Positions 29,197 through 41,555 of a DNA stretch of 64,000 bases are shown here, in pieces (the stretch's first letter is position 1; every line of letters starts with the position of its first letter). The translations under genes were made by a program, and so were the position numbers. The stretch is taken from positions 33,066 through 97,065 of the forward strand of contig CAZAKI010000001.1 in assembly GCA_964485855.1 (NCBI GenBank). The letters run 5' to 3'. The notes beneath the pieces were generated by a model. The model had not been told where the DNA came from. It did not search any database and saw nothing but the letters and a program-made list of their open reading frames with translations. This DNA comes from an uncultured Syntrophomonadaceae bacterium. GTDB lineage: Bacteria > Bacillota > Dethiobacteria > DTU022.

Positions 29197-29895
29197 TTAT
29201 TCAATTTCTCTCTTGTTGTACATATCCTGCAGTGAATCGCGATCTGCAGAAACCAGGGCATCAATATCGGCGTTACATTCACCCGCTTCAATTGCCTTTG
29301 TGCGCTCTGCTAAAAATTGATCCGGCTTAGCTATGTAGCGGCTATATAGCCTCCTGGCAGTGAGGGCAGCGTTATAATGAACAATATTTGCCGGACAACG
29401 CGATACACAAAGACCGCACATCAGGCAGTCAAAAGATAAATCTGCTGCTTTCTCAAAATCACCACGCTGGATGTAAGCGATATACTGCATTACATCAATG
29501 TCTTGGGGGCAAACTTTCGTACAGGAACTACATCCCAGGCAGCGGTAAACTTCAGGATAAAGCTGGGCAAAATGGGCTACTGATGGTTTGATCTCATCTA
29601 AATCAAATGTTGCTTTACGGCCGGGGAAAAAGGGGATTTGAGCCAAATACATGCCATCTTCCACTTTTGTCTGGCAGGCCAGACCAACTTTTAACTCGTA
29701 ATCACCGGCCATTCGGTATACAGTCGCACATGCTCCGCAAAACCCGGCCCGACAGCCGCAACCACGCTTTAACTGGTATCCCGCATACTCCATGGAATCC
29801 ATGATGGTCAGGGATTCCGGAACTGTATATTTTTTACCCATAATATAAATATCAACCATCTTAATTTCGTCGCTCATATTATCCTCCTTTGGCAA
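29197..29895 (-). CDS. FrdB/SdhB-like iron-sulfur subunit ([2Fe-2S] plus two [4Fe-4S] motifs)
   Basis: C-x4-C-x2-C...C (CRAGFCGAC) plant-ferredoxin-like motif, then CLGCSSCTKVCP and CLMCGLCVSRCP. Confidence 0.8.
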   Translation of the reverse strand: MPKEDNMSDEIKMVDIYIMGKKYTVPESLTIMDSMEYAGYQLKRGCGCRAGFCGACATVYRMAGDYELKVGLACQTKVEDGMYLAQIPFFPGRKATFDLDEIKPSVAHFAQLYPEVYRCLGCSSCTKVCPQDIDVMQYIAYIQRGDFEKAADLSFDCLMCGLCVSRCPANIVHYNAALTARRLYSRYIAKPDQFLAERTKAIEAGECNADIDALVSADRDSLQDMYNKREIE

Positions 29896-29902
29896 AGCAG
29901 AC

Positions 29903-31249
29903 CTATTCGGCAGGTGGTGCAGGAATAAACCCTTTCTCCATTAACATTTGGGTCTGCTTCTGGGCTTTGCCGATCGATGTTTCGGCGAGCTTGTAGATTT
30001 CTTCTCTACTGAGCTTGATGCGGGCTACTCCCTCTTCAATTGCTTTCATCGCCGTCGCAGTTGCGACTCGGGGGAAGATATCCCACATGTCCATCGTCGG
30101 CAATATTTTCTCGGGATTCATACCGCCATCCGGAGCGCAGGCAGCCAGTTCCTCTGCAGCAGCTATACACATTGTATCAGTAATTTTTGTGGCTTGAACA
30201 TCCAAAACACCGCGGAAAATTGCCGGAAAGCCGAGCGAATTATTAACCTGGTTCGGAAAATCAGAACGCCCGGTTGATACTATTTTCGCCCCGGCTTCAA
30301 GAGCCTCCCAGGGCCAGATTTCTGGAATCGGGTTAGCGCAAGCGAAAACAATTGCATCCTTCGCCATGCTGGAGATCCATTCTTTTTTAATCGTGTCAGG
30401 ACCGGGAGTAGAAAGGGCAATGATTACATCGGCTCCGTTACAGGCATCAGCAGGTTGGCCAACCAGATTACCGGCGTTAGTAGTCTGACAAAGTTCCCAT
30501 TTGACCGGGTGTTTTTCCTTTAACTCCGTCCTACCCTTGTGTAATGTCCCCTTGCTGTCAAGCATGATGATCTTTGCCGGATCCACCCCGGCAGCAATAA
30601 TCAAACGGGCGGTGCAGATATTAGCTGCGCCGGCTCCCAGCATGACTACTTTTACTTCGCTCATCTTTTTACCAACTATTTTTAAAGCATTAATCAAACC
30701 GGCCAGATTAACCATGGCCGTTCCCTGCTGGTCATCATGCCAGACCGGAATGTGGCACTCTTCTTTCAGCCGATCCAGGATATCAAAACATTTCGGACTT
30801 GCAATGTCTTCAAGGTTAATCCCGCCAAAACAAGGTTGCAGCATTTTTACGAACTTAATGAACTCTTCAGGATCCTTAGTGTCAACACAAACTGGAAAAG
30901 CATCAACTCCACCCAGGTATTTAAAAAGTAGCGCTTTCCCCTCCATTACCGGCATGCTGGCTTCGGGACCGATATCACCCAATCCGAGAACTCTAGTTCC
31001 ATCTGATACAACCGCCAGCAAATTAGCCTTGTTGGTATATTTGTAAACATCTTCTTTATTCTTAGCTATCGCTTTGCAGGGTTCGGCTACACCCGGAGTG
31101 TACCAAATTGCAAAATCTTTAATATCCCGGACACAACACTTAAGATCCACTTGAATTTTTCCTTTATAAAAGGGATGCAATTTCATCGCATCCTCGGCCG
31201 GCTTTTTGGCTTTAGCCAGCAAATCTTCTTTATTCATGGTCATTATCAT
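29903..31249 (-). CDS. NAD(P)-dependent malic enzyme (short form, oxaloacetate-decarboxylating malate dehydrogenase)
   Basis: 448 aa. Malic enzyme N-terminal and NAD-binding domains (VMLGAGAAN). No phosphotransacetylase-like C-terminal domain. Confidence 0.85.
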   Translation of the reverse strand: MIMTMNKEDLLAKAKKPAEDAMKLHPFYKGKIQVDLKCCVRDIKDFAIWYTPGVAEPCKAIAKNKEDVYKYTNKANLLAVVSDGTRVLGLGDIGPEASMPVMEGKALLFKYLGGVDAFPVCVDTKDPEEFIKFVKMLQPCFGGINLEDIASPKCFDILDRLKEECHIPVWHDDQQGTAMVNLAGLINALKIVGKKMSEVKVVMLGAGAANICTARLIIAAGVDPAKIIMLDSKGTLHKGRTELKEKHPVKWELCQTTNAGNLVGQPADACNGADVIIALSTPGPDTIKKEWISSMAKDAIVFACANPIPEIWPWEALEAGAKIVSTGRSDFPNQVNNSLGFPAIFRGVLDVQATKITDTMCIAAAEELAACAPDGGMNPEKILPTMDMWDIFPRVATATAMKAIEEGVARIKLSREEIYKLAETSIGKAQKQTQMLMEKGFIPAPPAE

Positions 31250-31299
31250 TATCCCTGCCTTTATTATTTGGTGACTGCTTTTTTAGAGATCAGGTGCGG

Positions 31300-31851
31300 T
31301 TAGCGCGCATATTTTTTAGCTCCATCAGCATACAGATCATTGCCGTAGGCATCGTTGATCACAGTGGCCGGAAAATCTTTCACCTCGAGTTTGCGAATCG
31401 CTTCCGGCCCCAATTCCGGATAGGCAACAACTTCGCTTTTGATTATTCGTTTCGAGAGTAATGCTCCCGCCCCTCCCACTGCAGCCAAATAGACGCCCTT
31501 ATATTTCTTTAGCGCTTCTTTGACCGCCTGATTTCTTAAACCCTTACCGATACAGGCTTTCATCCCTTTTTCGAGCATCATTGGAGTATAAGCGTCCATC
31601 CGACCGCTGGTTGTCGGTCCGGCTGAACCAATTGCCTGTCCAGGTTTGGCCGGAGCCGGTCCCACGTAATAAATAAACTGTCCCTTTAAATCGATCGGCA
31701 GATCCTCATTTTTTTCCATCAACTCAATTAGTTTTTTATGCGCTGCGTCACGTGCCGTATATATGATTCCACTAATTAATACATTGTCTCCCGCTTTAAG
31801 TGCAAGCACATCCGCATCGCTCAGTGGTGCAGAAATTTTTTTCGGTTCCAT
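31300..31851 (-). CDS. class I (Fe-S) fumarate hydratase / tartrate dehydratase beta subunit
   Basis: 183 aa. Matches the Fe-S hydro-lyase beta (FumB/TtdB type) family. Confidence 0.85.
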   Translation of the reverse strand: MEPKKISAPLSDADVLALKAGDNVLISGIIYTARDAAHKKLIELMEKNEDLPIDLKGQFIYYVGPAPAKPGQAIGSAGPTTSGRMDAYTPMMLEKGMKACIGKGLRNQAVKEALKKYKGVYLAAVGGAGALLSKRIIKSEVVAYPELGPEAIRKLEVKDFPATVINDAYGNDLYADGAKKYAR

Positions 31852-31881
31852 TGTGCTGTCCTCCTTCCTGCTTTGATCAAA

Positions 31882-32727
31882 TTATATTTCTCGTTCCAGG
31901 TGGCGGCAGGCATGGCAATTAATATTGACTGCCGCTGCCATGCTGGCGATATGTGAAGGAAATGTTTCAATATGAACGGCAAGAGCAAAAGTCCTACCAC
32001 CGAAACCCTGGGGACCTACGCCTAGATCATTGATCTTGCTCAGTATTTTCGCTTCAAGCTCCGCGAAAACCGGATCGCCATGCTTTGAACCTATTTGGCG
32101 GAAAAGGGCTTTTTTGGCCATCACCGCAACCTTGTCAAAAGTACCACCTATGCCGACACCAACAACTATCGGGGGACAAGGATTCGGTCCGGCAGCTTTA
32201 ACGTGATTGACAACAAAGTCAATTACTCCGGCTTCACCATCCGACGGTTTCAGCATTTTTACCGTGCTCATATTTTCACTGCCGCCGCCTTTTGGGGCAA
32301 AAGAGATCTTCACTTTATCACCGGGTACAAGATCCGTATAAATTACCGCCGGGGTATTATCTCCGGTGTTTTTCCTCTGGTAGAGAGGATCATCGACAAT
32401 TGATTTGCGTAGATATCCTTCTTCATATCCTTTGCGCACACCAGCATGAATCGCTTCCTCAAGCGTTCCTCCCGTCAGATGCACTTCCTGTCCCCACTCG
32501 ACAAAAAAAACAGCAAACCCCGTATCCTGGCAGATCGGAATTTGCTCATTTCTGGCAATCTCAACGTTTTCAATCAGCTGTTTTAAGACTTCCTTACCTG
32601 TTGGCGATTCTTCAGTATCCATTGACTTTTTTAAGGCAGAAAAGACGTCTTCGCCTAAGTAGATGTTTGCTTTCTGGCACATCTCGGCCACATGATCACT
32701 AATAACAGACGCGGCAAGCTCCCGCAA
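31882..32727 (-). CDS. class I (Fe-S) fumarate hydratase / tartrate dehydratase alpha subunit
   Basis: Fe-S hydro-lyase alpha with Cys ligands. The start is set at TTG 32727 (MRELAASV...), 8 nt after GGGAGG. The GTG at 32736 overlaps the Shine-Dalgarno. Confidence 0.85.
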   Translation of the reverse strand: MRELAASVISDHVAEMCQKANIYLGEDVFSALKKSMDTEESPTGKEVLKQLIENVEIARNEQIPICQDTGFAVFFVEWGQEVHLTGGTLEEAIHAGVRKGYEEGYLRKSIVDDPLYQRKNTGDNTPAVIYTDLVPGDKVKISFAPKGGGSENMSTVKMLKPSDGEAGVIDFVVNHVKAAGPNPCPPIVVGVGIGGTFDKVAVMAKKALFRQIGSKHGDPVFAELEAKILSKINDLGVGPQGFGGRTFALAVHIETFPSHIASMAAAVNINCHACRHLEREI

Positions 32728-32856
32728 ACCAGACACCTCCCATGAAATTTCTGCAGTTGTACATTTATATTTCTTTTTCGGCCTGCATGGGGAAATTCCT
32801 GCCGCTAATTATAAAATTTATTATAATTCTAAAATTTATCATGGAAGGCTTGCCGG

Positions 32857-33744
32857 CTATTTTGCTACTTTAGCCATTAACTTTTTGTAATCCCGATCAA
32901 CTTCTGCCTGCAAGTGTTCTAATTTAGCTTGATCCATGTTCTTAAAACGTTTTTGTCTCCCCAAATATTCACTGAGTGGAACGCTTTTAATGTCAGCCTG
33001 AACGGTCATCCTCCAGGTGGTGCCATTATCTACTTCAAAAAGAGGGAAGAAACCGGTTGTAACCGCTAGCCTTGATATTTCAACGGTTTCTGATGATTCA
33101 GTCCCCCAGCCAGGCGGGCAGGGCGATAATATATGAATAAAGCGAAAGCCCTTTATCGCTTTGGCTTTCTTCAGTTTTGCATCCAAATCTTCAGGATAAG
33201 CGATCGTTGCCGTTGCTATATACGGTACACTATGCGCCGCCATGATCTGCATGATGTCTTTCTTTTCTCCCTCTTTGAAGAGTGGATAGGGCGCGGTGTT
33301 TGTCCTCGCACCAAAAGGTGTCGCCGAACTTGTTTGCATACCTGTATTCATATAAGCTTCGTTATCATAACAGACAAAAATGAAGTCTTCGTTTCTCTGG
33401 GCTGCTCCAGACAAGGCTTGAAGGCCGATATCAAAAGTACCGCCATCTCCGGCCAGCACGACAACTGTAGTCTCATGGTAACCTTTTGCCTCCAAGCCCC
33501 TTTTAAGCCCGCTCCCTACAGAACCGGCGCTGGGAAACGGACAGTGTAGGACAGGGCATTTTAAGGCATTTAAAGGAGGCATCCCGGCAATAATACTCCA
33601 GCAGGATGCAGTTAGCGCAACAGCAATATTGGATCCAAGAGCCTTGGTTAGAAAACGGACGGCGAGCGCAGCACCGCAGCCCGGACAGGCATTATGCCCG
33701 GAATAAACCATTTCCTGTTGATGGACTAATGCTTCCGGTTTCAT
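32857..33744 (-). CDS. 2-oxoacid:ferredoxin oxidoreductase beta subunit (TPP-binding)
   Basis: 295 aa. N-terminal CPGCG and TPP motif GDGG...N (VVVLAGDGGTFDIG...YDNEAYMNTG). Confidence 0.85.
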   Translation of the reverse strand: MKPEALVHQQEMVYSGHNACPGCGAALAVRFLTKALGSNIAVALTASCWSIIAGMPPLNALKCPVLHCPFPSAGSVGSGLKRGLEAKGYHETTVVVLAGDGGTFDIGLQALSGAAQRNEDFIFVCYDNEAYMNTGMQTSSATPFGARTNTAPYPLFKEGEKKDIMQIMAAHSVPYIATATIAYPEDLDAKLKKAKAIKGFRFIHILSPCPPGWGTESSETVEISRLAVTTGFFPLFEVDNGTTWRMTVQADIKSVPLSEYLGRQKRFKNMDQAKLEHLQAEVDRDYKKLMAKVAK

Positions 33745-34889
33745 TTTAGATGATCACCCCAGACTTCAAGATACTGGTCATTTGTCTCTGCGTTGCCTGC
33801 ACTGAGCATGTTCAAAAGCATATCTCCGGTTAAATCGATGCCGCCGGCCAAGATCAGATCCCTGATTACAGGCTTTACCGGCAACTGGTAAAGAGCTTGA
33901 CAGAGTTCCTGGGCAAATACTCCGCCGCTCCCGATTGAATAGTTGCGATCAAGAACAATAATCTCTTCCAGCTCATAAGCTTTGACGATCGCACGCAGTC
34001 TTTCGGCGGGAAAAGGTCTGAACATCCGCAGCTTGATTAGCCCGATATTTTCCAGGTCTGGCAAAGACCACTTTACCGTTTCTGCTAATGCCCCAACCGC
34101 CATAATAGCTTTTCTGGCACCGGCAGGAATATATTCCTCCACATCTTGGTAACTACGGCCGAAAACTTTTTTAAACTGTTTATTGATCTCGGCAAAAACT
34201 TCCGGCGCAAGATGCATCGCATCGTCGCGATTTTTTACCAACTTATGGACTGTTTCACCGGTTGACAATCCGTGCAAATTTTCCGGATATCCCGGAACAA
34301 CCTGGGCTTTAAAATTTGGCGGTCCGATTAAACTTTGCACCAAAGATTTTTCTGCAATATCGACCACCTCATAGGTATGAGAAATATAGAATCCGTCAAA
34401 TACCACCATGCAGGGCAAAAGCAATTTTTCAGCCAGCGAAAATGCCTGTAAAACAGTATCAAAGACTTCCTGGGCATTGGCACAATAAATCTGAAGCCAT
34501 CCTGTGTCCCGCTGGCTGAGACTGTCGCCCTGATCCGGATCGAGACACCAGGGGGCACCGATAGCCCGGTTCACGTTAACCATAACGATTGGCAGTCTTG
34601 CTCCGCTGGACCAATGAATCATTTCATGCATGTAGGCCAGACCATGTGAAGCAGTAGCGGTAAAGACCCTGGCTCCAGAAGCTGACGCACCGGTACAAAA
34701 GGCAAGAGCTGAATATTCAGACTCAACACTGACAAATTCGCCTCCCAACTCTCCCCTGGCATCAAAATCAGCTAAAGTTTCAACAATTGCCGTTTGCGGT
34801 GTAATCGGATAAGCAGCGATCAGATCAACACCAACTCTTTGAACGGCTGTTGCGGCGGCCTGGCTGCCACTAATCATCTCAAAAGTCAT
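33741..34889 (-). CDS. 2-oxoacid:ferredoxin oxidoreductase alpha subunit
   Basis: 382 aa POR/KOR alpha-type protein. Its coding sequence overlaps the beta gene by 4 nt and the upstream gene by 11 nt. Confidence 0.85.
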   Translation of the reverse strand: MTFEMISGSQAAATAVQRVGVDLIAAYPITPQTAIVETLADFDARGELGGEFVSVESEYSALAFCTGASASGARVFTATASHGLAYMHEMIHWSSGARLPIVMVNVNRAIGAPWCLDPDQGDSLSQRDTGWLQIYCANAQEVFDTVLQAFSLAEKLLLPCMVVFDGFYISHTYEVVDIAEKSLVQSLIGPPNFKAQVVPGYPENLHGLSTGETVHKLVKNRDDAMHLAPEVFAEINKQFKKVFGRSYQDVEEYIPAGARKAIMAVGALAETVKWSLPDLENIGLIKLRMFRPFPAERLRAIVKAYELEEIIVLDRNYSIGSGGVFAQELCQALYQLPVKPVIRDLILAGGIDLTGDMLLNMLSAGNAETNDQYLEVWGDHLK

Positions 34890-36435
34890 TCGCCGGCTCC
34901 TCCTTCATTTCCAAAGCTCTGGCCGGGCATTCGTTGACGCAGATGCCACAGCCCTTGCAATAGTCCAGGTTAAACTCAAAACGACCGTTTGCTATGACAA
35001 CAGCTAAATCAGGACAGTATAGATAACAGATACCGCATGAATTACAGGTTCCGCAACCAAGGCAGCGTTCTGCTTCTGCCACCGGGTTGTCGTCCCGCTG
35101 TTTTAAATCAAGATTATTTCTTGCAGCCAGATTTAAATATTCAAAGGTAACTGGATCACCATAATTGGCCTGGAAACTCAAATCTTTTAATTTTTCATCA
35201 ACATTTTTAATCGCCTCCGCCGCACAGTGTCCAGCTTTAATTGCTTCTGCCACTGTTGCCGGGCCACTGACTAAATCTCCTCCGGCAAAAATATTTTGAC
35301 TACTATTGATAGTACCCAATCCTGCTAAATCAGGAACCTGGCCAAGAGCCATAATTACGGATTGACAATCTTTAATAAAACTTCTATCCCGATCGACAAA
35401 CAAACCTTGTTTTTCAGTCCGACAGTAATCAATCCTTACACCAATTATTCTTTCTTCGGTTTTAATAATCTCACGTGGTAAAGCATTAAAAATAAACTCT
35501 ACGCCTTCCTGCTCTGCCAGATCAATTTCATGTTGATCGGCTGGCATCTCAGGTCTGCTGCGCCTGTAGATTAAAACAACATGTTGCACTCCGGCAATGC
35601 GTAGTGCACTACGTGCACTGTCGATTGCTGCATTACCACCGCCAATGACAACAACTGTTTTGCCAACCTCTGGGATCCTACTTTGATTGTATTGGCAGAG
35701 AAAGTCAAGAGCATTATAAACATAGCGACTTTCCGCACCCGGAATATTGGATTTGCGTGCAAGCCAGGCTCCAGTAGCCAGAAAAACCTGTTCATGCTGT
35801 TTGTATAGATCATCGAGCTGAAAATCTTTGCCCAAGGCGCTATTGGTTTTAAAAATAATGCCTTCCGCTTTCAAGATGGCCAGCTCTTGTCTTAGAATAT
35901 CACGTGGTAACCTGTATTCCGGGATGCCAAGCGCAAGCATACCACCGATTACTGCTGATCTTTCGTAAATGGTAACCCCATAGCCGGCTGAGGAGAGATA
36001 ATAGGCACAGCTTAAACCAGCCGGGCCGGAGCCGACAATAGCGATCTCCTTCTTTACTTCTTTGTTTCTTTCTGGCGGCTGATAATGATCAAGTCTCCAC
36101 AAACCAATTGCCTTTTCCACTGCTCTGATATTAATTCCCTGATCCAACTGAGTCCTGTTACAGTTTTGCTCACAGGGGTTAAAACAAACATAACCGGTAA
36201 TTGCCGGGAAAGGATTATAGCGGCTCATAATCTCCCAGGCTTCTGCCCATTTTTTTTGTTTTACCGCTTCAAGCCAAGCCGGTATTTCACCGTCCAAAAG
36301 ACAGCCCTGGCGACATGGTGATAACCGATTCATTTTGAAGGGAGTTAAAAAACGCCACTCCCCGGTCTTGTTGACCGTGATAGCTTTAGATCCACCGGCA
36401 AACAATGTTGGTACCTGGCTAGCGATCAACTGCAA
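34879..36435 (-). CDS. fusion protein: a GltD-like NAD(P)H-dependent FAD/Fe-S oxidoreductase module joined to an OFOR delta-type 2x[4Fe-4S] ferredoxin domain
   Basis: N-terminal Cys-rich helical ferredoxin-like segment (CRQGC...CFNPCEQNC). Two dinucleotide folds (IAIVGSGPAGLSCAYYL and VVVIGGGNAAIDSARSA). C-terminal CxxCxxCxxxCP motifs (CKGCGICVNECP). TTG start with an AAGGAGG Shine-Dalgarno. It overlaps the gamma gene by 17 nt. Confidence 0.75.
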   Translation of the reverse strand: MQLIASQVPTLFAGGSKAITVNKTGEWRFLTPFKMNRLSPCRQGCLLDGEIPAWLEAVKQKKWAEAWEIMSRYNPFPAITGYVCFNPCEQNCNRTQLDQGINIRAVEKAIGLWRLDHYQPPERNKEVKKEIAIVGSGPAGLSCAYYLSSAGYGVTIYERSAVIGGMLALGIPEYRLPRDILRQELAILKAEGIIFKTNSALGKDFQLDDLYKQHEQVFLATGAWLARKSNIPGAESRYVYNALDFLCQYNQSRIPEVGKTVVVIGGGNAAIDSARSALRIAGVQHVVLIYRRSRPEMPADQHEIDLAEQEGVEFIFNALPREIIKTEERIIGVRIDYCRTEKQGLFVDRDRSFIKDCQSVIMALGQVPDLAGLGTINSSQNIFAGGDLVSGPATVAEAIKAGHCAAEAIKNVDEKLKDLSFQANYGDPVTFEYLNLAARNNLDLKQRDDNPVAEAERCLGCGTCNSCGICYLYCPDLAVVIANGRFEFNLDYCKGCGICVNECPARALEMKEEPANDF

Positions 36436-37015
36436 GGTACGCCACCTCCTTTACACTAGCAAATCCCTCGGTGGTCGCATTAATATTAGCATCAAGGCTT
36501 ACTGAAACTCTTTTCTTAATCGATGCCGTCAAATGTTCCAGGTTGACCAATCCACTTACTTTAGCCATAGCCCCAAGCATCACCGTATTAACCATTGGAA
36601 AACTACCGATGGCCAGATTATTTTTCAAGGCAATTTCTTTAGCCTCAATTTGAAATACTTTATACTGGCAGAGATTAGTCCTATTTTTTTCGAATAGTTT
36701 CCGCCAATCTTCCCCGGCATTAATAATCAGATTTCCTTCCTCCTGCAGGCCAGAAAAAAGAGTCTGTCTGCTAATTGTTGCATCAAACACTACCACATAA
36801 TCAGGATGATAAATTCTGCTACGGGGCATCAGCCGCTCCGGACTAATTCTAATGAAAGCAGTTACCGGCGCACCGCGACGCTCAGCGCCAAAAAGGGAAA
36901 AAGCCCGGGCATATTTACCGCTTAAAAATACAGCTTCGGCAAAAATCGATGCGGCTACAACAATCCCCTGCCCCCCCCTGCCGTGTAACCTAAATTCGGT
37001 TATTCCTCTGCGCAT
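36419..37015 (-). CDS. 2-oxoacid:ferredoxin oxidoreductase gamma subunit
   Basis: 198 aa POR/KOR/VOR gamma-type protein with a GGGAGG Shine-Dalgarno. It is the first gene of a gamma/delta/alpha/beta order. Confidence 0.85.
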   Translation of the reverse strand: MRRGITEFRLHGRGGQGIVVAASIFAEAVFLSGKYARAFSLFGAERRGAPVTAFIRISPERLMPRSRIYHPDYVVVFDATISRQTLFSGLQEEGNLIINAGEDWRKLFEKNRTNLCQYKVFQIEAKEIALKNNLAIGSFPMVNTVMLGAMAKVSGLVNLEHLTASIKKRVSVSLDANINATTEGFASVKEVAYLAVDR

Positions 37016-37030
37016 TTACATTCCTCCCTA

Positions 37031-37071
37031 CAATATTTTGCAAGATGAAATAGTTTGCTTGCAAAATATTG
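37031..37071. promoter_or_regulatory. perfect 14-bp inverted repeat, CAATATTTTGCAAG-N13-CTTGCAAAATATTG, in the 5' leader just upstream of the gamma-subunit Shine-Dalgarno
   Basis: Direct reading. A third partial TTTTGCAA copy lies near 37239..37248, overlapping the -12 region of the sigma-54 promoter. Confidence 0.4.
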
Positions 37072-37242
37072 CATGGTTCTTTTTTAAAGTCTTTTCTGTC
37101 CCGCTTTTATTAACATCTAAAGCGTCTCTGCTCTAAGGCCTAAAACTCTCAATAACCTTCCTCAAGCTCTTTAGCCGCCATCCTGGCAAATATTTAACGA
37201 TCAGCATCTCTCCTTATCTCAATTGTTAGCTACAAAATTATT

Positions 37243-37259
37243 TTGCAATTTTCATGCCA
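37243..37259 (-). promoter_or_regulatory. sigma-54 (-24/-12) promoter, TGGCATGAAAATTGCAA, driving the oxidoreductase/TCA-branch operon
   Basis: On the minus strand, the GG and GC dinucleotides are spaced exactly as in the TGGCACG-N4-TTGCW consensus. The site lies 17 nt downstream of the stop of the adjacent sigma-54 activator gene, with a roughly 215-nt leader to the first structural gene. Confidence 0.55.
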
Positions 37260-37275: not shown

Positions 37276-38676
37276 TTAAATTAGGTTTTGTTGGTGAAGT
37301 TTGTTGTAAAGATTGCGGATTGAAATATCGAGGATACGTGCTGCTTCGGCCTTGTTGCCTTTGGCTTCCAGCAAGGCTTGACGCAAAATACCTTTTTCCC
37401 AGCTTTTATGCAGATCTTTTAAACTGCCTAGCGGTTTCTCACTTTCTCCTGTTTCAGTTTTTCCTGTGATCAGGTCGGGCATCATTAAGTGAGATTCAGT
37501 GATCATATTTTCTGTCCGATCTAAGTTAATCACCGCGCGAGCCATTACATTTTGTAACTCCCTGATGTTACCCGGCCAGTCATAGGCTTTCAGTCGTTTA
37601 AATACTGTAGGGGCAATTTCCACTGAATTTAGGCCGTATTCCAGGGCGCAGCGGGAGGCAAAATAATTAGCCAGTAGGGGGATATCACTGAGCATCTCTT
37701 TCAGTGAAGGTAAATAAATCGGAAATACATTGAGACGATAATAAAGATCCTGTCGAAAATAATTATTTTCGACCAGCTTTTCCAGATTGGCATTCGTCGC
37801 CGCTATAATTCGCACATCGATCTGCCGGCTACGTGACTCGCCTACCCTGATTATTTCACCCTCTTGAAGTGCCCTCAGTAATTTGGCTTGAGCTTCCGGA
37901 CCCATCGCACCGATTTCATCTAAAAACAAAGTACCATCAGTAGCCTCTTCAAAATATCCCTTACGCCCTCCTTTTTTAGCACCCGTAAAAGCCCCATCAC
38001 CGTAACCAAAAAGTTCGCTTTCCAGAAGAGTGTCAGTCAGTGATGCGCAGTTAACCCTGATAAACGGTTGATCAGCCCTTTCACTGTCATGATGAATGGC
38101 ATGAGCAAAAAGTTCTTTACCAGTACCACACTCACCTCGTAATAATATGGATACCGGGGTTGAGGCAGCCTGCCTTGCTCGCTCTATAGCTTTGCGCAGT
38201 GACATGCTGTCACCGATAATGTCTTTAAAAGTATAACGAGATTCCAATTTCCGGACCAGCCGGCGAGTGCGTTCCAACTCTTCCATCACCAGCCTCAACT
38301 CAGAAATATCGTGAATTACTCCGACACTACCCTTGATCTCTTTATTTAAGAATAAGGGGGCACAGCTTACGATTACTTCTCTGCGCAGTGGTCCTACTTT
38401 CATTCGAACTCCGGTAATCGCTTTTCCACTTTCCAGGACTTTTAAGTGGACACTTTCTCCTTCTGCAATATCAACAGTTGCCGGTTTATTTAACACTTGT
38501 TCTCTGGTCATTCCCGTAATTCTGGTGTAAGCGCTATTAATCATCATTCCGTTCCCTTTTTCATCAACTATAGAGACCGCATCGGACAGTGAATCAATAA
38601 TGGCCTGAAGAAGAACCATAGAGTCTTTTCCATCATTTAATAACCTAAATTGACCCTTAGAAAGATTACTGATCAT
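37276..38676 (-). CDS. sigma-54-dependent transcriptional activator (PAS sensor + AAA+ sigma-54 interaction domain + Fis-type HTH)
   Basis: 466 aa. GAFTGA-type motif (GDGAFTGA), Walker A GECGTGKE, and a C-terminal HTH ([18 protein letters not shown]). Confidence 0.9.
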
Positions 38677-38688
38677 TGAAGGTTTTCC

Positions 38689-40731
<2,043 letters not shown>

Positions 40732-40922
40732 CTACTTAACTTTTTATCTTTAGTAATAAGTTCAATTTTATTTTATTATTCCCTTTTTTCCTTGCACAAT
40801 TTTGCACGATTCTTACATCGTTTGACCTGTTAAATTTCGTCTTGTTAACCTGGACTAAAATATTTTTATATATCATCAGCCCTTGCTTGTTTGCAGAATT
40901 TAGATTAAAATAATAAACATAA

Positions 40923-40932
40923 CGACCGGTCG
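40923..40932. promoter_or_regulatory. perfect 10-bp palindrome CGACCGGTCG, probably the TetR operator, 20 nt upstream of the tetR ATG
   Basis: Direct reading. It is located between an AT-rich promoter region and the Shine-Dalgarno (AGGAGA). Confidence 0.4.
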
Positions 40933-40952
40933 GTTTATTTTAGGAGACGGTA

Positions 40953-41555
40953 ATGAATAATTTGGAACGTAAAATTCAAACTAAAACAAACATTGTGCAA
41001 TCCGCCACATCGTTATTTGCCCGCAATGGTTATGAAGCAACCAGCGTTGCCGAAATCTGTACACTTGCCGGGGTTAGTAAAGGAGCTTTTTATTACCATT
41101 TTGAAAGCAAGGAAGCCGTTTTGTTTAAATTGATTGATTCCTGGTTAAAAACCATCGAGGAAAACCTTTCCGAAATTACATTTAAAGCCAAAACTGTGCC
41201 TGACGGCTTGATCGAAATGGCCGGTATGATGCAGACTGTCTTCGATCATAATCGATTTTTTATGGGTTTATTTCTAGAATTATGGACCAACGCGCATCGT
41301 AATGAAAAAATCCGCCAGGCAACCCTGGCTCCCTACGAACGGTTCAAAAATCTTTTTTCCGAACTGATAAACCGTGGTAGTGAAGAGAAATCTTTAAAAA
41401 CGGTCGATCCCGAAACGGCAGGCCAGCTCTTGCTGTCGCTCTCCAGTGGTTTCTTTTTACAGGCTGCTCTTGAACCAGATCGCCGTGATTGGGGCAGTAA
41501 GCTGCAGAAGAGTATTGAAATGTTATTAGATGGTTTAAAACGGGGGAATAGTTAG
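40953..41555 (+). CDS. TetR/AcrR family transcriptional regulator
   Basis: 200 aa with an N-terminal HTH (ATSVAEICTLAGVSKGAFYYHF). Confidence 0.85.
   Translation: MNNLERKIQTKTNIVQSATSLFARNGYEATSVAEICTLAGVSKGAFYYHFESKEAVLFKLIDSWLKTIEENLSEITFKAKTVPDGLIEMAGMMQTVFDHNRFFMGLFLELWTNAHRNEKIRQATLAPYERFKNLFSELINRGSEEKSLKTVDPETAGQLLLSLSSGFFLQAALEPDRRDWGSKLQKSIEMLLDGLKRGNS

Follow-up and report, generated by a model that had tools for sequence, protein, structure and literature searches.

Activator sites placed downstream of a promoter are known from Caulobacter, in which FlbD sites lie downstream of some flagellar promoters, and from Bacillus subtilis, whose rocG downstream enhancer is the closest precedent for the locus analysed here. 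As described in PMC4941409, the sigma-L promoter of rocG depends on a RocR site located 1.5 kb downstream, the rocG-rocA intergenic region functions as an activating sequence from upstream as well as from downstream, and the RocR site still works when it is moved 15 kb. The same source presents the SoxR-dependent soxC promoter of Bacillus thuringiensis and NtrC at glnAp2 with displaced sites as cases in which activator sites work at distances of at least 1 kb. The Bacillus BkdR/bkd operon, as covered in PMC4428206 and PMC4941409, represents sigma-L-dependent catabolism of branched-chain amino acids. The analysis of Clostridiales sigma-54 regulons by Nie et al. 2019 placed most activator sites 100-250 bp upstream; no ldh-OFOR regulon was listed there, and the sites were sought only from -400 to +50 of start codons.

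The window, i.e., the whole 64-kb stretch of DNA that was analysed, contains a candidate sigma-54 promoter located between the gene of a sigma-54 activator and the genes of a 2-oxoacid oxidoreductase (OFOR). According to the reading that we favour, to which we assign a probability of about 0.65, the element TGGCATGAAAATTGCAA is a functional sigma-54 promoter for the OFOR genes, served by the activator encoded upstream and by an enhancer in the leader, and the layout resulted from the loss of ldh, a gene for a Leu/Val-type amino-acid dehydrogenase. The preliminary description had regarded this layout as atypical; it is indeed uncommon, yet the downstream enhancer of rocG, as described in PMC4941409, provides a precedent.

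The candidate promoter and its neighbouring genes

On the minus strand, positions 37259-37243 read TGGCATGAAAATTGCAA, with GG at 37258-37257 and GC at 37246-37245, which is the spacing of TGGCAYG-N4-TTGCW. The preliminary description had called the element near-consensus, and the search confirmed the spacing and revealed an exact match (TGGCATGAAAATTGCA, 37259-37244), the only one on both strands of the window, where 0.07 are expected; at least one exact match was obtained in 7 of 100 shuffled windows. The element also fits the looser published consensus YGGCMYRNNNNYYGCW, whose two matches in the window against 1.04 expected are not significant by themselves. When two mismatches were allowed, the number of matches was near chance (23 versus 19.8 expected), and weaker matches are therefore uninformative. 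A match with one mismatch at 29641-29656 was rejected as a further promoter as it lies inside the ORF 29197-29895, and so was the second YGGCMYR match, at 29745, which is GC-rich and located on the other strand. An RpoN-box ORF is absent from the 64-kb window. As the promoter motif alone is only suggestive, the argument is carried by its context and conservation.

The element is non-coding and lies between the stop of the activator gene (37276) and the OFOR gamma gene (37015), on the same strand as both. It begins about 17 nt past the activator stop codon TAA (37278-37276), with aatttctcttttttta in between. The transcription start is predicted at about 37233, taken as about 12 nt beyond the C of the -12 element, which gives a leader of about 215-218 nt. 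Both the earlier placement of the element and the earlier estimate of a leader of about 215 nt agree with these coordinates (about 218 nt from the predicted start). Neither a sigma-70-like promoter nor a terminator-like site was found on the minus strand of the 260-nt spacer between the activator and OFOR gamma genes.

The upstream gene (37276-38676, minus strand) encodes a sigma-54 enhancer-binding protein of 466 aa composed of PAS, AAA+ and HTH_8 domains (Pfam PF00989, PF00158 and PF02954, respectively). The presumed identity of this activator was borne out by the match to the sigma-54 interaction domain (PF00158, 7.8e-68), together with the GAFTGA motif at residue 228, Walker A (GECGTGKE) and Walker B (FLDE). 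The recognition helix ISIRNLY(N/Y)KL is common to the activators of the clade defined below and to BkdR-like homologues from Bacillaceae, in which it has the form I/LS-I/L/V-RNLYYKL, while more distant activators carry IHRSGLYQKM or a similar sequence.

The activator gene begins 12 nt past the stop of ligA, which encodes the NAD-dependent DNA ligase (40698-38689, minus strand), and this pairing (38676-38689) is kept across the clade; a catabolic regulator thus seems to share a transcript with a housekeeping gene for replication. In the syntenic relatives, a divergent tetR gene is followed by ligA and the activator gene. A strongly conserved palindrome, AAACCGACCGGTCGTTAT, at 40919-40936 adjoins the divergent TetR-family gene (40953-41555) and is found in the same place in loci L161, L163, L165, L167 and L168; it is probably the operator of the TetR-family repressor.

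The genes downstream of the element (32857-37015, minus strand) all encode OFOR subunits of the pyruvate/2-ketoisovalerate type according to Pfam and NCBIfam. They comprise OFOR gamma (37015-36419), a GltD-like NAD(P)/FAD protein fused to the OFOR delta ferredoxin domain (36435-34879), OFOR alpha (34889-33741) and OFOR beta (33744-32857). The identification of the first of them as OFOR gamma in the preliminary description holds, with matches to PF01558 and TIGR02175 (172 bits versus a cut-off of 81). TIGR02175 and TIGR02179, both above their cut-offs, assign the subunits to the pyruvate/2-ketoisovalerate subfamily, and the best NCBIfam match of OFOR beta, 3-methyl-2-oxobutanoate dehydrogenase beta, is below the cut-off. 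The part joined to the delta ferredoxin domain (34879-36435, minus strand) is a 450-aa GltD/NfnB-like NAD(P)- and FAD-binding protein, and the OFOR subunits also have sub-threshold matches to PadE/F/G/I of the NADH-dependent phenylglyoxylate dehydrogenase. The enzyme may hand electrons straight to NAD(P)+ instead of free ferredoxin. The genes of class I fumarase alpha and beta and of malic enzyme (29903-32736, minus strand) come next on this strand, 120 nt beyond OFOR beta, and the scan detected no terminator-like site in the gap; these genes may or may not share the OFOR transcript.

Conservation of the element and the tandem palindromes

The relatives of the locus were gathered from species-representative genomes, metagenome contigs and contigs encoding close homologues, and the count of tandem palindromes covered 170 fetched loci (denoted by L numbers). 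The clade set consists of 19 loci with activators 68-100% identical, which come from uncultured Syntrophomonadaceae, other Bacillota MAGs and metagenome contigs, some of them from soda-lake sediments. The outer set contains the homologues from Bacillaceae and Atribacterota, whose activators are 50-53% identical.

All 19 loci with an activator at least 68% identical carry the motif TGG[CT]A[CT]R-N4-TTGC 3' of the activator gene and in the same orientation, most commonly in the form TGGTATGAAAATTGCAAA. Across these loci the element lies 10-364 nt beyond the aligned end of the activator, and its flanks have diverged. As the element is kept in 19 loci in spite of the diverged flanks, it constitutes a clear phylogenetic footprint, above chance. 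Based on this comparison, TGGCATGAAAATTGCAA is very likely a real sigma-54 promoter for the 2-oxoacid oxidoreductase operon.

The leader carries two candidate enhancer sites on the minus strand, which were found by inspection of the sequence and by alignment. Site 1, TGCAATATTTTGCA (37060-37073), has perfect palindromic half-sites and is centred at about +166, and site 2, TGCAAAATATTGTA (37029-37042), is centred at about +197. Both are 14-bp palindromes of the form TGCAA-N4-TTGCA, located exactly 31 bp apart, and site 2 adjoins the OFOR gamma RBS GGGAGG (37028-37023). When 12 loci were aligned, neither the half-sites nor the 31-bp spacing varied, in contrast to the four central bases, which differ even in orientation; in site 1, 10 of 14 positions are invariant and the other four are conserved to at least 90%. 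Nowhere else in the window does the tandem pattern occur, and none of 100 shuffles of the window produced it. The exact tandem TGCA-N6-TGCA-N17-TGCA-N6-TGCA occurs once per locus in 16 of the 170 fetched loci, all belonging to the clade, and always 3' of ldh or of an ldh remnant. The window, L081 (contig Ga0180431_10006515, whose activator gene is identical to that of the window) and L161 depart from the exact tandem by one base in site 2, and the sequences of L082, L085, L087 and L162 end short of its expected position. The 17-bp spacer between the palindromes, aGCAAACAATTrCAA (alignment columns 15-31, window 37059-37043), is itself conserved and contains a further ATTGCA half-site in several loci, which hints at a third, overlapping binding unit.

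The preliminary description had proposed that the binding sites of the activator lie either inside the 3' end of its own coding sequence or in the leader. The leader does contain suitable sites, namely the two palindromes at 37073-37029. The placement in the coding sequence was rejected, as neither the window nor any other clade locus has a match of at least 9/10 to TGCAA-N4-TTGCA in the activator gene, its 3' end included, or from there to the first promoter.

The palindromes are most likely the enhancer of the activator, as judged from their distribution among the loci. L083 and L084 carry the same palindrome pair between ldh1 and a second promoter (TGGTATGAAAATTGCG and TGGTAAGAAAATTGCG, respectively), which is followed by ldh2; the distance to this promoter is about 150-185 bp, so that the palindromes there take the canonical upstream position. 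Likewise, in the Bacillaceae homologues, sites similar to TGCAA-N4-TTGCA are located about 35-145 bp upstream of the predicted start, just past the activator stop, for example CATGCAATTTATTGCAAG in L007 and two copies in L009, with the promoter TTGGCACG-N4-TTGCAT. The genes downstream of these promoters are a ptb-like gene and then ldh, or ldh first. Two points count against the enhancer reading: the centres of the L168 sites, at only about +32 and +63, would make looping awkward, and an activator bound within the transcription unit could hinder elongation.

Several other features of the palindromes and of the loci that carry them were noted. The two tandem ldh paralogues of L083 (4681-6408) and L084 (4731-7055) each stand behind a near-identical sigma-54 promoter, with a single enhancer between them, and in L084 OFOR gamma follows ldh2 after a spacer without palindromes. 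A further copy of the palindrome is conserved in the Bacillaceae homologues about 700 bp upstream of the activator start (L006 5268, L007 5292, L011 5254 and L062 5292). In the window, a single TGCAA-N4-TTGCA palindrome, TGCACAATTTTGCA, at 40793-40806 (plus strand) lies about 95-110 nt upstream of the ligA start, and its counterpart occurs about 80-130 nt upstream of ligA in all syntenic loci (L161 1373, L163 1352, L165 1385, L167 1361 and L168 1358). As the right half of this palindrome is a possible -35-like TTGCAA for the ligA-activator operon, autoregulation is suggested, and the palindrome may be an autoregulatory site of that operon.

Loss of ldh and the proposed mechanism

In the intact loci (L163, L165, L169, L170 and L001), the order is activator, promoter, ldh, two palindromes and OFOR gamma, with the palindromes 1.1-1.5 kb beyond the promoter. 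L163 and L165 have a leader of about 45 nt after the promoter, then a gene for a dehydrogenase of the Glu/Leu/Phe/Val family (347-349 aa), a spacer of 74-76 nt and OFOR gamma. The gap between ldh and OFOR gamma in the intact operons is only about 65-110 nt and contains no promoter.

In the window, a remnant of about 135 nt of a gene of the same family was recognised at 37080-37215 (minus strand) by alignment with the ldh genes of the relatives. It retains the RBS AAGGAGAG (37215-37208), the ATG codon (37207-37205) and about 20 recognisable codons, which carry a 1-nt deletion causing a frameshift, and the sequence beyond them is decayed. It aligns with the 5' ends of ldh from L163, L165, L170 and L082 and with the pseudogene of L161, in which the activator is 85% identical and ldh is a frameshifted remnant of 480 nt. 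No second copy of ldh was found elsewhere in the 64-kb window. As the ldh of the window has decayed, the leader passes through a pseudogene stub.

The gene was also lost in L002, L167 and L168, whose spacers measure about 250, 280 and 124 nt, respectively, and the remnants in these three loci, L161 and the window range from 0 to about 480 nt. In the NJ tree of activators, the loci without ldh fall on at least three separate branches, in each of which the promoter and the palindromes are kept. This distribution points to at least three independent losses or pseudogenisations of ldh within the clade, with OFOR, promoter and palindromes retained. The ancestral unit would have consisted of activator, promoter, ldh, enhancer and OFOR, the distance from the promoter down to the enhancer being 1.1-1.5 kb. 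The odd layout of the window is thus explained by the deletion of the ldh gene that once separated the promoter from the candidate activator-binding sites, and the retention of promoter and enhancer through independent deletions of ldh suggests that both are still used.

The motifs, their positions and conservation and the ldh pseudogene are direct results of sequence comparison; the binding of the activator, looping and the dependence on sigma-54 belong to the model that we propose on this basis. Dimers of the activator would bind to the two TGCAA-N4-TTGCA palindromes, whose distance of 31 bp corresponds to three helical turns, at about +166 and +197. The bound activator would assemble into an oligomer, which would loop back over about 170-200 bp to the closed complex of the sigma-54 holoenzyme, and ATP hydrolysis by the activator would open the promoter. 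RNA polymerase would then read through the enhancer into OFOR gamma, as it must if the enhancer lies inside the transcription unit.

We also lean, with somewhat less assurance than for the locus itself, towards a generalisation of this model to the whole clade. The sole activator sites would lie inside the activated unit, between its first and second cistrons and 1.1-1.5 kb downstream of the promoter, and would continue to serve it after repeated loss of the first gene (at +430, +166 and even +32); in some genomes a second promoter would also use them as its upstream enhancer. If this is true, the polymerase must displace its own activator in every round of transcription, and how strongly ldh is expressed relative to OFOR could be set by the bound activator or by an RNA hairpin.

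Alternative explanations and comparison with described systems

The palindromes could instead act in RNA, as a stem-loop 5' of the OFOR gamma RBS that affects mRNA stability, processing or translation, with the activator binding elsewhere or without nearby sites. In both the MFE and the centroid folds of the leader, the two palindromes pair into a 16-bp hairpin that ends beside the RBS, and site 2 adjoins the RBS in most loci. However, the covariation test showed that 91.7% of cells pair as compared with 91.2% in column shuffles, with 229 of 500 shuffles reaching 91.7%, and the central positions of the palindromes change without compensation. In L083 the central pairing is even spoiled, as TATT stands at the centre of both sites, which are direct repeats of each other. 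Moreover, the palindromes of L083 and L084 are followed by a spacer of 120-150 nt and a promoter, not by an RBS, the same motif stands upstream of promoters in Bacillaceae, and the leader as a whole folds with no unusual stability (z = -0.7), all of which makes a role in RNA unlikely. A riboswitch or attenuator in the leader was rejected based on the same z value, the lack of covariation above shuffles, the absence of a terminator-like site and the Rfam search of the leader, which gave no match at E<=1.

Less likely still is that the palindromes are operators of another regulator, e.g., the divergent TetR-family protein, which would act as a roadblock ahead of the OFOR genes. Such a role would fit the copy of the motif found between tetR and ligA, both in the window and in syntenic loci, as well as the position of the palindromes between promoter and genes, where repressors often act. 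However, a separate and better conserved palindrome, ACCGACCGGTCGTT, adjoins the tetR start and is the likelier TetR operator, while L002, L169, L170, L083 and L084 keep the palindrome pair with no TetR gene in the fetched flanks. The motif co-occurs with the activators of the clade, and with sigma-54 promoters in Bacillaceae, and no sigma-70-type promoter overlaps the palindromes. The least probable of the three alternatives treats the promoter as a relic left by the deletion of ldh, with OFOR expressed mainly by read-through of the ligA-activator transcript. The gene originally behind the promoter is indeed dead, and from the activator stop to OFOR gamma there is no terminator-like site, so that read-through may also contribute to OFOR expression. 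Against a relic stands the finding that promoter and enhancer are essentially unchanged in at least three independent lineages without ldh, in which the intervening sequence decays or disappears. Moreover, the OFOR genes are already served by this promoter in the intact operons, as follows from the short promoterless gap behind ldh.

The functional promoter with an enhancer in the leader, which we prefer to these alternatives, shares several features with rocG as it is described in PMC4941409. Both are sigma-54 promoters of Bacillota with activator sites (candidate ones in the clade) downstream of the start and none upstream, and a gene for a dehydrogenase of the Glu/Leu/Phe/Val family separates promoter and enhancer, by 1.1-1.5 kb in the intact relatives. 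The palindromes of L083 and L084 double as upstream sites for the next promoter, like the rocG-rocA intergenic region. Unlike that of rocG, according to the same description, the proposed enhancer of the clade would itself be transcribed, being situated between two cistrons of the unit or, as in the window, in its 5' leader; regulator, binding motif and target pathway are different as well. The soxC and glnAp2 cases, as presented in that source, share position-independent enhancer action with the model proposed for the locus, but they concern distance, not a conserved intra-operonic site beyond the start.

The second relationship is with BkdR. According to the descriptions cited above, in both systems a PAS-AAA+-HTH_8 activator is encoded just upstream of its sigma-54 promoter in the same direction, and the targets start the breakdown of branched-chain amino acids by a dehydrogenase followed by oxidative decarboxylation of the 2-oxoacid, the substrates of the clade enzymes being predicted. 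When the locus was compared with a BkdR-type regulon, the domain architecture was present and the relatives were found to have ldh and a POR/VOR-type OFOR, and the best NCBIfam matches at the substrate level were below the cut-off. The BkdR-like homologues from Bacillaceae that were compared, 50-53% identical, have the same recognition helix and palindrome motif. The systems differ in that the sites are upstream of the promoter in Bacillaceae and downstream of it in the clade, and in that the dehydrogenase gene was lost in the window. Moreover, the 2-oxoacid step of the clade is assigned to a ferredoxin-type OFOR with a fused GltD-like subunit, whereas the bkd operon, as described in these sources, relies on a lipoamide dehydrogenase complex.

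As a kind, a sigma-54 promoter with a downstream enhancer is already known; in this case the enhancer would lie inside the transcribed region. The system would add a second natural, family-wide example of a sigma-54 enhancer acting from downstream of the start. As the repeated deletions of ldh vary the distance between promoter and enhancer from about 30 bp to 1.5 kb, the clade offers a natural series for studying the effect of distance. Such cases would escape annotation pipelines that look for activator sites only on the upstream side of a sigma-54 promoter. With the proposed model, the apparently anomalous layout of the promoter becomes explained, and a testable regulon is obtained for a group of uncultured anaerobes, in which a BkdR-like activator would control an amino-acid dehydrogenase together with a ferredoxin/NAD(P)-linked 2-oxoacid oxidoreductase.
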